IMG/VR virus record: IMGVR_UViG_2859810971_000008
Location: 1 to 35,162 of that record
Reading direction: 5' to 3' (one strand)
DNA length: 35,162 nt
DNA from: a virus
Taxonomy: Duplodnaviria > Heunggongvirae > Uroviricota > Caudoviricetes
Shown: in pieces, positions 30,196-30,834 of the stretch
Layout: each line of letters starts with the position of its first letter
Numbering within the stretch: the stretch's first letter is position 1
Translations under genes and position numbers: made by a program
The notes under the pieces: model-generated
Seen by the model: only the letters and a program-made list of their open reading frames with translations
Told to the model about the DNA's origin: nothing
Database searches by the model: none

Positions 30196-30834
30196 TCAGA
30201 TGATTTTCTTCAGGCGGCGTTTGCGTTTCTCGTTGACCGCAACAGCGTGTGGCAGTCTGTCACCGACTTCGGTGTTGTAGGCGTTCAGGAAGGATTCGTA
30301 GTCGATTCGTTCTGCCTTGCGACGTTCAGGTTTAACATGCCCATCGCCGCCCCCGTTAGGGGGTAAGGGGGTATTTGTATTTATTGTCTTTTGTATATTG
30401 TCTTTTGTGTTTAGCTGACTTGGCTTATACCCATTAGCCGACTTGGCTAATGTTTTATTAGCTGTTTTAGCTAATGTTAAGCTGTCCTGGCTAATCCACT
30501 GAGAAACCACCTTGTTCACTCCGATTTTCACGCCATCAGCAATGAGGAATTTACGCTCAATAAGCTGGCGCTTGGCAGCGCAAACATGAGTGTGATGAAT
30601 ACCTGTCATGGCTGCTATCTGCGTGTTTGTGAGTCGATCCATCGGCTTATTGAATCCGTATGTCTTGCGCATGATAGCGAGCATCACCTTCAACTGCCGG
30701 ACGGTTAAATCAGCCATCAGCAGACTGTCGGTAATCTCGTTAGCAACGCGCATGAAACCATCTTCGGTATCTGCCACGCGATGCTCCACGACCTCCAGTT
30801 GAGGCCTGTAATCAGCTAACTTAACGACGCCCAT
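30196..30834 (-). pseudogene. O: Replication initiator O (lambda O-like), C-terminally truncated at the IS911 end
   Basis: N-terminal domain similar to lambda O (…LTVRQLKVMLAIMRKTYGFNKPMDRLTNTQIA…); origin iterons lie inside the gene; the ORF ends on the TGA formed by the IS terminal TGAAGTGG, after about 50 residues of the C-terminal domain. Confidence 0.7.
30370..30495. repeat. Lambda-type replication origin: four about 18-bp iterons plus adjacent AT-rich region
   Basis: TTAGCTGACTTGGCTTAT, TTAGCCGACTTGGCTAAT, TTAGCTGTTTTAGCTAAT, TAAGCTGTCCTGGCTAAT at about 23-bp spacing (30411-30495), each an imperfect dyad, followed at 30370-30410 by an AT-rich tract. Confidence 0.7.

Follow-up and report, generated by a model that had tools for sequence, protein, structure and literature searches.

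In phage lambda, the replication initiator O contacts DNA through its N-terminal part and the partner protein through its C-terminal part, and it no longer functions once the final 35 codons are lost or an amber mutation is present at codon 295 of 299 (PMC6022878). When the origin of a prophage that cannot be excised fires, the cell dies, an outcome known as replicative killing, and in the cells that survive, O or P has typically suffered an insertion or a deletion (PMC6022878). Furthermore, O and P provided by a heteroimmune phage leave the origin of a repressed lambda prophage unfired (PMC6022878, PMC3349717), because transcription from pR is needed in cis. These genetic rules, namely, loss of function upon C-terminal truncation, replicative killing, and transcriptional activation in cis, are borrowed from lambda in the analysis below (PMC6022878, PMC3349717). 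In the phages HK446, P22, and CUS-3, and in a prophage of E. coli ST12468, the gene that follows the initiator gene encodes a 458-residue DnaB-type helicase of the P22 gp12 type, which contains both the N-terminal and the C-terminal domains of DnaB (261 bits for DnaB_C) and is annotated as replicative helicase or as P22 gene 12; the partner in these intact relatives is not a loader of the lambda P type. It is also well known that prophages in Shigella are eroded by IS elements, as exemplified by IS911 in ninG of Sf6 and by the oac1b prophage remnant (PMC3630932).

Here, we describe a replication module of this kind that has lost its partner gene. The window, by which we mean the whole stretch of 35,162 nucleotides that was analysed, corresponds almost exactly to one prophage (~35 kb), inserted in the yih (sulfoquinovose catabolism) cluster. 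A sequence-only reading had drawn attention to a truncated initiator gene within it; the observation is real and was correctly described, and what it captures is ordinary IS-mediated prophage decay. The best explanation of the locus, to which we assign a probability of about 0.85, is that it is the stump of a lambdoid-prophage replication module dismantled by IS-mediated decay, a replicon dead in cis and without a selected function. Judging by the alignments, every component is already known, being 99-100% identical to described phage or IS sequences (Table 1).

Table 1. Coordinates of the replication stump, the insertion sequence that cut it, and the surrounding genes and sites, by position in the window
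Feature	Position	Strand	Basis
Integrase gene	1-1158		
Late promoter pR', qut site, and tR' terminator, as annotated in Sf6	28663..28746	-	~97% conserved
Q' (3' 226 nt and stop, ~residues 98-172 of 172; late antiterminator of the phage-21/Sf6/CUS-3 type)	28718..28949	-	tblastn, CUS-3 identity
Complete IS911, 1249 bp, orfA/orfB oriented as O'	28950..30198	-	100% identical to annotated copies
Stop codon of O' (TGA), from the terminal three bases of the IS911 left inverted repeat	30196..30198	-	sequence
O' (first 212 of 273 codons, replication initiator)	30199..30834	-	PF04492 114.5 bits, PHROG 345, TIGR01610
G/C (C5/G5) palindrome CCCCCGTTAGGGGG(TAAGGGGG) beside the AT-rich tract	30350..30371	.	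conserved in P22, HK446
AT-rich strand-asymmetric tract, 25-30% G+C, with repeated TTGTCTTTTGT motif	30372..30412	.	identical in P22, HK446, window
Four iterons (16-19 bp, internal dyad TTAGC...GCTAA)	30413..30495	.	repeat search; 100% identical to HK446
Small ORF between cII and O (by position, homologue of HK97 gp53 / P22 orf48)	30824..30985	-	fused to frameshifted cII
cII homologue with 1-bp deletion in C-run	31019..31294	-	comparison with HK446 and E. coli prophage
oop-like antisense terminator at the cII 3' end, 10-bp stem followed by T-run	31023..31057	+	position as in P22 and lambda annotation
cro-like repressor, 71 aa, first gene of the pR operon covering O' and the origin	31414..31629	-	intact
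cI-type repressor, HTH and S24 LexA-like peptidase, 231 aa	31706..32401	+	intact

A truncated initiator gene around an intact origin

The initiator ORF (30834..30196, minus strand), which we denote O', starts with ATG and consists of 212 codons and a stop. It aligns without gaps with a replication protein of 273 aa from an E. coli prophage, over residues 1-212, of which 211 are identical, which bears out the claim of the sequence-only reading that O is truncated. The protein belongs to the family of lambda O and P22 gp18 and represents the HK446/ST104-gp18 allele. Retained in O' are the winged-helix origin-binding domain (residues 19-113; PF04492, 114.5 bits against a cut-off of 28.7), the linker, and the start of the C-terminal module; on a full-length homologue, TIGR01610 covers the same residues (94.8 bits), and PHROG 345 ("replication initiation O-like") aligns across all 273 residues of the full-length initiator. 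Alignment with full-length O proteins, which the same reading had proposed as a check, puts the missing C-terminus at 61 residues (213-273), with about 25 columns that are nearly invariant among 20 aligned relatives, including L215, G222, R224-V227, F230, P236, F237, G240, W246, D251, L253, L254, R263, and E264. O' is therefore short of a defining feature of the family, the complete C-terminal module that couples the initiator to a loader or helicase. Apart from a few fusions and fragments, the best 120 relatives in the database, which come from E. coli, Salmonella, Citrobacter, Enterobacter, Klebsiella, Cronobacter, and Yokenella, are 263-278 aa long. None of these 120 ends at residue 212, the outcome that the sequence-only reading had named as refuting its claim. 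In the sense of the gene, the DNA at the end of O' reads ...AAG AAA ATC ATC TGA AGT GGC ACA CTG AAT TTG GCC ACC, and the sequence-only reading was exact in placing the stop of the frame on the TGA at the IS911 terminus, this being the first triplet of a 100%-identical copy of the element. The 212-aa "replication protein" is the product of a pseudogene.

Comparison with other initiators indicates what was cut. Lambda O is homologous to this initiator only over residues 17-149 (42% identity), and nothing aligns beyond; CUS-3 O has an unrelated N-terminus and yet is 95% identical over residues 144-273; P22 gp18 is ~75% identical in the C-terminal module and 50% overall; and the C-terminal segment also matches PHROG families of initiators that bear other N-termini. 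From these comparisons, residues from ~144/154 to 273, 120-130 in all, form an exchangeable module that accompanies a particular partner gene. O' keeps 59-69 residues of this module, or ~34 residues of the predicted helical core, so the earlier estimate of about 50 retained C-terminal residues was a fair approximation that is now refined. An AlphaFold2 model derived from a 21-sequence alignment, of low confidence (mean pLDDT 50) and used solely for rough secondary-structure limits, predicts a disordered linker at residues 134-178 and helices at 179-190, 202-214, 220-233, and 250-263, which would place the cut inside the second of about five helices; a PDB sequence search found no solved relative of the full-length initiator. 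Separately, we observed that the mosaic boundary between initiator alleles coincides exactly with the junction of the iterons and the AT-rich tract: P22 and CUS-3 have the AT-rich tract, the palindrome, and the C-terminal module in common with this gene and differ from it in the iterons and the N-terminal domains.

The origin lies within what remains of the gene and has the arrangement typical of the family: the part of the gene that codes for the linker contains about four iterons and then an AT-rich tract. The 16-nt iteron units are located at 30413-28, 30436-51, 30460-75, and 30480-95, at a spacing of 23, 24, and 20 bp. A degenerate pattern derived from the four copies has no other match in the 35 kb window, with 0.03 expected by chance, a test that is partly circular, the pattern having been taken from the copies themselves, and is given little weight. 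More telling, the iterons and the AT-rich tract are 100% identical to those of the plaque-forming phage HK446, in agreement with the previous description of both as intact inside O, and a 191-bp iteron/AT-rich stretch is identical in HK446 and the E. coli prophage except for two positions downstream of the palindrome. The iterons fall at codons 113-141, compared with codons 116-144 of O for the annotated lambda iterons, and the P22 origin is annotated at the equivalent place in gene 18; the iterons of the window differ from those of both lambda and P22. Given the identity to HK446 and the E. coli prophage, the codon positions in lambda, and the comparison with P22, it is justified to regard the origin as intact and as possessing an iteron specificity of its own.

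In the place of the adjacent downstream loader (P) or DnaB-type helicase that is characteristic of the family, O' is followed by IS911. Searches of the window with tblastn detected no DnaB-type helicase (the queries were the CUS-3 and ST12468 proteins, near-identical to Sf6 gp44 and P22 gp12), no NinB, and no lambda P, consistent with the earlier remark that neither P nor a helicase-loader gene follows O. The accompanying notion of an O/P pair did not hold up, given that the intact relatives combine the initiator with the 458-aa helicase and that its C-terminal region is unlike that of lambda O. There is some value for annotation in this outcome: initiators of this type have a helicase and not lambda P as their partner, and the origin annotation is transferable from HK446 or P22.

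Insertion sequence junctions and the state of the prophage

The element at the end of O' has the features expected of IS911 (IS3 family), namely, a length of ~1250 bp, 5'-TG...CA-3' ends, imperfect inverted repeats, orfA and orfB, and an A6G slippery site. Its ends are TGAAGTGG...CCACTTCA, the slippery-site motif is TTAAAAAAG, and, over the full length, it is 100% identical to copies on S. flexneri pCP301 and many other S. flexneri plasmids. The end that supplies the O' stop is 5'-TGAAGTGGCACACTGAATTTGGCCACC, of which TGA is the first three bases, and the O'::IS911 junction reads CCTGAAGAAAATCATC / TGAAGTGGCACACTG. Towards O, the sequence matches intact prophage DNA collinearly from the first base beyond IS911; on the far side, positions 28130-28949 are 98.9% identical to the Q-to-holin (Q-S) interval of CUS-3, ending inside Q, and tblastn with Q proteins found in the window only residues 97-172 of the 172-residue CUS-3-type Q. 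IS911 joins codon 212 of the initiator to codon ~98 of Q, and because its flanks come from two different genes, it is not surrounded by the 3-bp target-site duplication that marks a simple insertion. This missing duplication points to an IS-adjacent deletion or to recombination between two IS911 copies; in the first case, IS911 would have inserted and then given rise to an adjacent deletion. What is missing is the final 61 codons of the initiator gene, all of the helicase gene and of nin, and the 5' half of Q, a loss of ~5 kb as judged from the corresponding interval in HK446, P22, and CUS-3.

Two further observations concern the borders of the element. The trinucleotide GAT is found on both sides of IS911 (28947-28949 and 30199-30201), but one copy is native to Q and the other to O, and they were accordingly rejected as a target duplication; we read the match as a 1-in-64 coincidence or, alternatively, as a trace of target or micro-homology choice during the deletion. 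In addition, orfA of IS911 begins 67 nt past the stop of O' and lies on the same strand (window 30127-30200); a pR transcript reading through O' after SOS would enter the transposase genes and could link IS911 expression to prophage induction.

The window, junction included, is 100% identical to CP026810.1 (GCA_002949455.1), a complete chromosome of 4.53 Mb, and the O'::IS911 junction is also found in the independent short-read assembly ERR200328, at a contig end that breaks 26 nt into the IS; therefore, it is not an assembly artefact. These are the only two data sets in which the exact 212-aa product is on record. The exact junction has 0 matches in IMG/VR and 0 matches in the GTDB species representatives, where Shigella is probably collapsed into E. 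coli, so that the latter zero says little on the frequency of the junction in Shigella. The host chromosome itself probably belongs to Shigella, given its content of IS911, IS600, and IS1 and the 100% identity of its IS911 to copies on S. flexneri plasmids.

The damage is not limited to O. The N gene is cut after 31 codons (32783-32875) by a 1264-bp IS600 (32876-34139), the terminal TGA of which serves as the stop. The flanks of IS600, AAA and GTG, are not duplicates of a target site, and neither the remainder of N nor the early-left genes are present, which together indicate that this is a second IS-associated deletion. In cII, the C-run near 31047 (~31046-31048) is CCC, compared with CCCC in HK446 and the E. 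coli prophage, and the resulting frameshift after ~codon 83 fuses cII to the next small ORF, yielding a 157-aa product, while the terminator stem of the oop-like RNA loses one bp. In the ERR200328 assembly, cII and the small ORF are separate genes, of 92 and 53 aa; therefore, the deletion in cII must either have arisen very recently or reflect a sequencing error at the homopolymer in CP026810.1. The name oop-like reflects only the terminator and its position: no Rfam match to an oop-like RNA was obtained in 27500-35162 at E<=0.1, and direct alignment of the region to lambda oop is poor. With respect to the late region, superinfection by a phage whose Q is of the 21 type, Sf6 for example, could in principle lead to antitermination of the lysis and structural operon in trans.

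The gene order of the prophage is integrase; two acyltransferases; tail, baseplate, sheath, head, portal, and terminase; lysis; Q'; IS911; O'; cII; cro; cI; N'; IS600; and small ORFs. To the left of the integrase are genes for PfkB, DeoR, HAD, and BrkB proteins together with a truncated NAD-binding gene, and to the right of the prophage are genes for DeoC/NAD-binding, epimerase, and GH31 proteins. Transcription of the integrase runs away from the left junction, from which it follows that attP lay between the xis-like end and int. The two Acyl_transf_3 genes next to the integrase (1515-2690, 391 aa, and 4456-5481, 341 aa) are candidates for serotype-converting O-antigen acetyltransferases. Some tail genes look like pseudogenes: a Gly-rich tail-fibre gene at 5918-6933, which encodes 338 aa in related genomes, is split here into ORFs of 161 and 185 aa, and the gene at 9328-9894 encodes 188 aa as opposed to 250 aa in related genomes. 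The baseplate J protein has 394 aa here and 399 aa in related genomes. Where other genomes carry the identical integrase at this site, all that is left is a remnant of ~10 kb, which contains the integrase, both acyltransferase, tail-fibre, and baseplate genes and ends at IS1 and an MFS transporter gene; this prophage is being deleted stepwise in the lineage.

The element is not a satellite of the PICI type, which we define as an island of ~10-15 kb with its own int and initiator/origin, helper-triggered de-repression, and no full virion gene set; what is found here is ~35 kb with terminase, portal, head, sheath, baseplate, and lysis genes, a LexA-like cI, and a truncated initiator. The oac1b prophage (PMC3630932) was considered as the same element and rejected because both the site and the gene content differ.

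Probable neutral decay and its alternatives

In the scenario that we favour, the winged-helix N-terminal domain of the complete initiator would bind the iterons lying inside its own gene, and the C-terminal module would couple it to the phage-encoded DnaB-type helicase. O'(1-212), if made, could still bind the iterons yet would be unable to recruit the helicase, and so, by analogy with lambda, the element could not replicate on its own and the replicon would be dead in cis. In the lysogen, the origin would be inert in any case, because cI would repress pR and no initiator would be present. As the O' frame, the origin, cro, and cI are all undamaged, expression of O' after SOS induction is possible. 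Nothing contradicts the structural part of this reading, that is, a truncated gene, its junctions, an origin left intact, and no helicase or loader gene. The other part, that the stump is without a selected function, is an argument from rarity and context: the 212-aa product is rare, the region has been lost in related genomes, and the junction is absent from the GTDB species representatives and IMG/VR, which we take to indicate neutral decay, not retention. If the loss was favoured at all, it would be because a firing origin in a prophage that cannot be excised kills the host, but drift would suffice.

Seen as decay, the locus matters little, other than as a clear-cut case, resolved in full, of prophage dismantling by IS elements in IS-rich genomes of the Shigella type: the helicase-coupling end of the initiator, the helicase, nin, and half of Q were removed by one IS911, and most of N by one IS600.

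Among the alternatives, the one that survives best, although we consider it unlikely, is that the orphan origin is a working cis-site that could be fired by the matching initiator and helicase of a co-resident or superinfecting phage, leading to in-situ amplification of the prophage and of the chromosome beside it and rendering the element or its flanks packageable or mobilisable. The iterons, the AT-rich tract, and the palindrome are, after all, 100% identical to those of a viable phage, HK446, and the initiator allele is common in phages of E. coli and Salmonella and in Stx phages, with 292 matching phage records, 42 of them at least 99% identical. O complements in trans in lambda (PMC6022878), and P22, a member of the same replicon family, replicates in situ before excision, which results in lateral transduction (PMC8575938). 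The integrase gene is present, and the 21/Sf6-type pR'/qut region is retained, such that a helper Q could also switch on the late operon. Against this stands, first of all, the finding that lambda O and P in trans do not fire the origin of a repressed prophage (PMC6022878, PMC3349717), and cI is intact here. Moreover, with N cut at codon 31, read-through to the origin after induction would be weak, and the O' made on induction could compete with the helper initiator for the iterons. Sf6, the best-known phage of S. flexneri, has another initiator type; the tail genes are split; IS600 breaks the pL operon in the direction of the excision genes; and most related genomes have discarded the region.

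Firing in trans is conceivable provided that three components come together, an initiator specific for the same iterons, its DnaB-type helicase, and pR transcription in cis. Because the iterons differ from those of lambda and P22, the helper would have to carry an allele of the HK446/ST104 gp18 type along with the helicase; lambda O would not do, and P22 gp18 probably would not either. Because cI is intact and N is truncated, only SOS induction combined with such a helper could fire the origin. In principle, the late genes could be switched on by a helper, yet they are damaged themselves, and the description of the element as mobilisable in the sequence-only reading is weakly supported because Q lacks its first ~97 codons, the tail genes are split, and the early-left operon is interrupted. 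Should the orphan origin nevertheless prove fireable in trans, it would, speculatively, represent one more route to in-situ chromosomal amplification.

A broader proposition, that the repressed stump, consisting of cI, pR, cro, O'(1-212), and a perfect origin, is not junk but a conditional anti-phage or gene-transfer device, strikes us as very unlikely. Were it true, O' could, after SOS, occupy the iterons of phages with the same replicon, many Stx phages among them, and block their replication, or, alternatively, a helper initiator with its helicase could fire the origin in situ, so that the flanking yih/fdo chromosome would be amplified and exposed to lateral transduction.

The narrower version, under which the retained module (pR-cro-cII, the oop-like RNA, O', and the iterons) would exclude phages of the same replicon by targeting their replication, either with O' as a dominant-negative iteron binder or with the iterons and the oop-like RNA silencing incoming origins, is extremely unlikely. 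There are precedents: plasmids carrying lambda oop and iterons block phages with the lambda replicon, and induced P-defective cryptic prophages show non-immune exclusion (PMC3349717), and in the window, O' keeps the full PF04492 DNA-binding domain and the linker without the helicase-coupling end, and an oop-like terminator is present. Yet, the published effect requires multicopy plasmids or an induced prophage, whereas here a single copy is repressed by an intact cI; furthermore, the 1-bp deletion in cII shortens the stem of the oop-like terminator, the exact O' is rare, and the region is lost in related genomes.

Finally, the idea that 212 codons are the natural length of this initiator type or that the O'::IS911 junction is an assembly artefact, the sole point in favour of which is that the ORF is open and ATG-initiated, is refuted by the homologues of 263-278 aa with their conserved C-terminus, by the span of PHROG 345 over all 273 residues, and by the occurrence of the junction both in the complete chromosome CP026810.1 (100% identical) and, independently, in an ERR200328 short-read contig, leaving it with virtually no probability.

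Relationship to described replicons and prophages

The closest described counterpart of the locus is gene 44 of HK446, together with the corresponding genes of the ST12468 prophage (WP_001608293) and of ST104 (gene 18). Identity to HK446 at the DNA level is 99.3% over 30199-31420, the iterons and the AT-rich tract are the same, and the first 212 residues of the protein differ by one substitution. Unlike O', these genes continue for 61 more codons and are followed by the 458-aa DnaB-type helicase and nin, where the window has IS911. The 18/12 module of P22 is similar in layout, with an oop-like RNA, a small ORF, and an O-like initiator containing an internal origin, and its AT-rich tract and palindrome are identical; however, the iterons and the N-terminal domain differ, so that P22 gp18 probably would not recognise the origin in the window, and the helicase partner is absent here. 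With lambda O and ori-lambda, the locus shares a homologous N-terminal origin-binding domain and four iterons at matching codons, followed by an AT-rich tract, but not the C-terminal domain, which is unrelated, and a helicase takes the place of lambda's loader P as partner.

As a decaying prophage, the element resembles Sf6, in which IS911 (annotated at 1249 bp, in ninG) likewise interrupts the nin/late region of a lambdoid phage, and the IS-riddled, non-inducible oac1b prophage remnant of Shigella (PMC3630932). It differs from both in that the IS marks a multi-gene deletion, not a simple insertion, and leaves behind an orphan origin.
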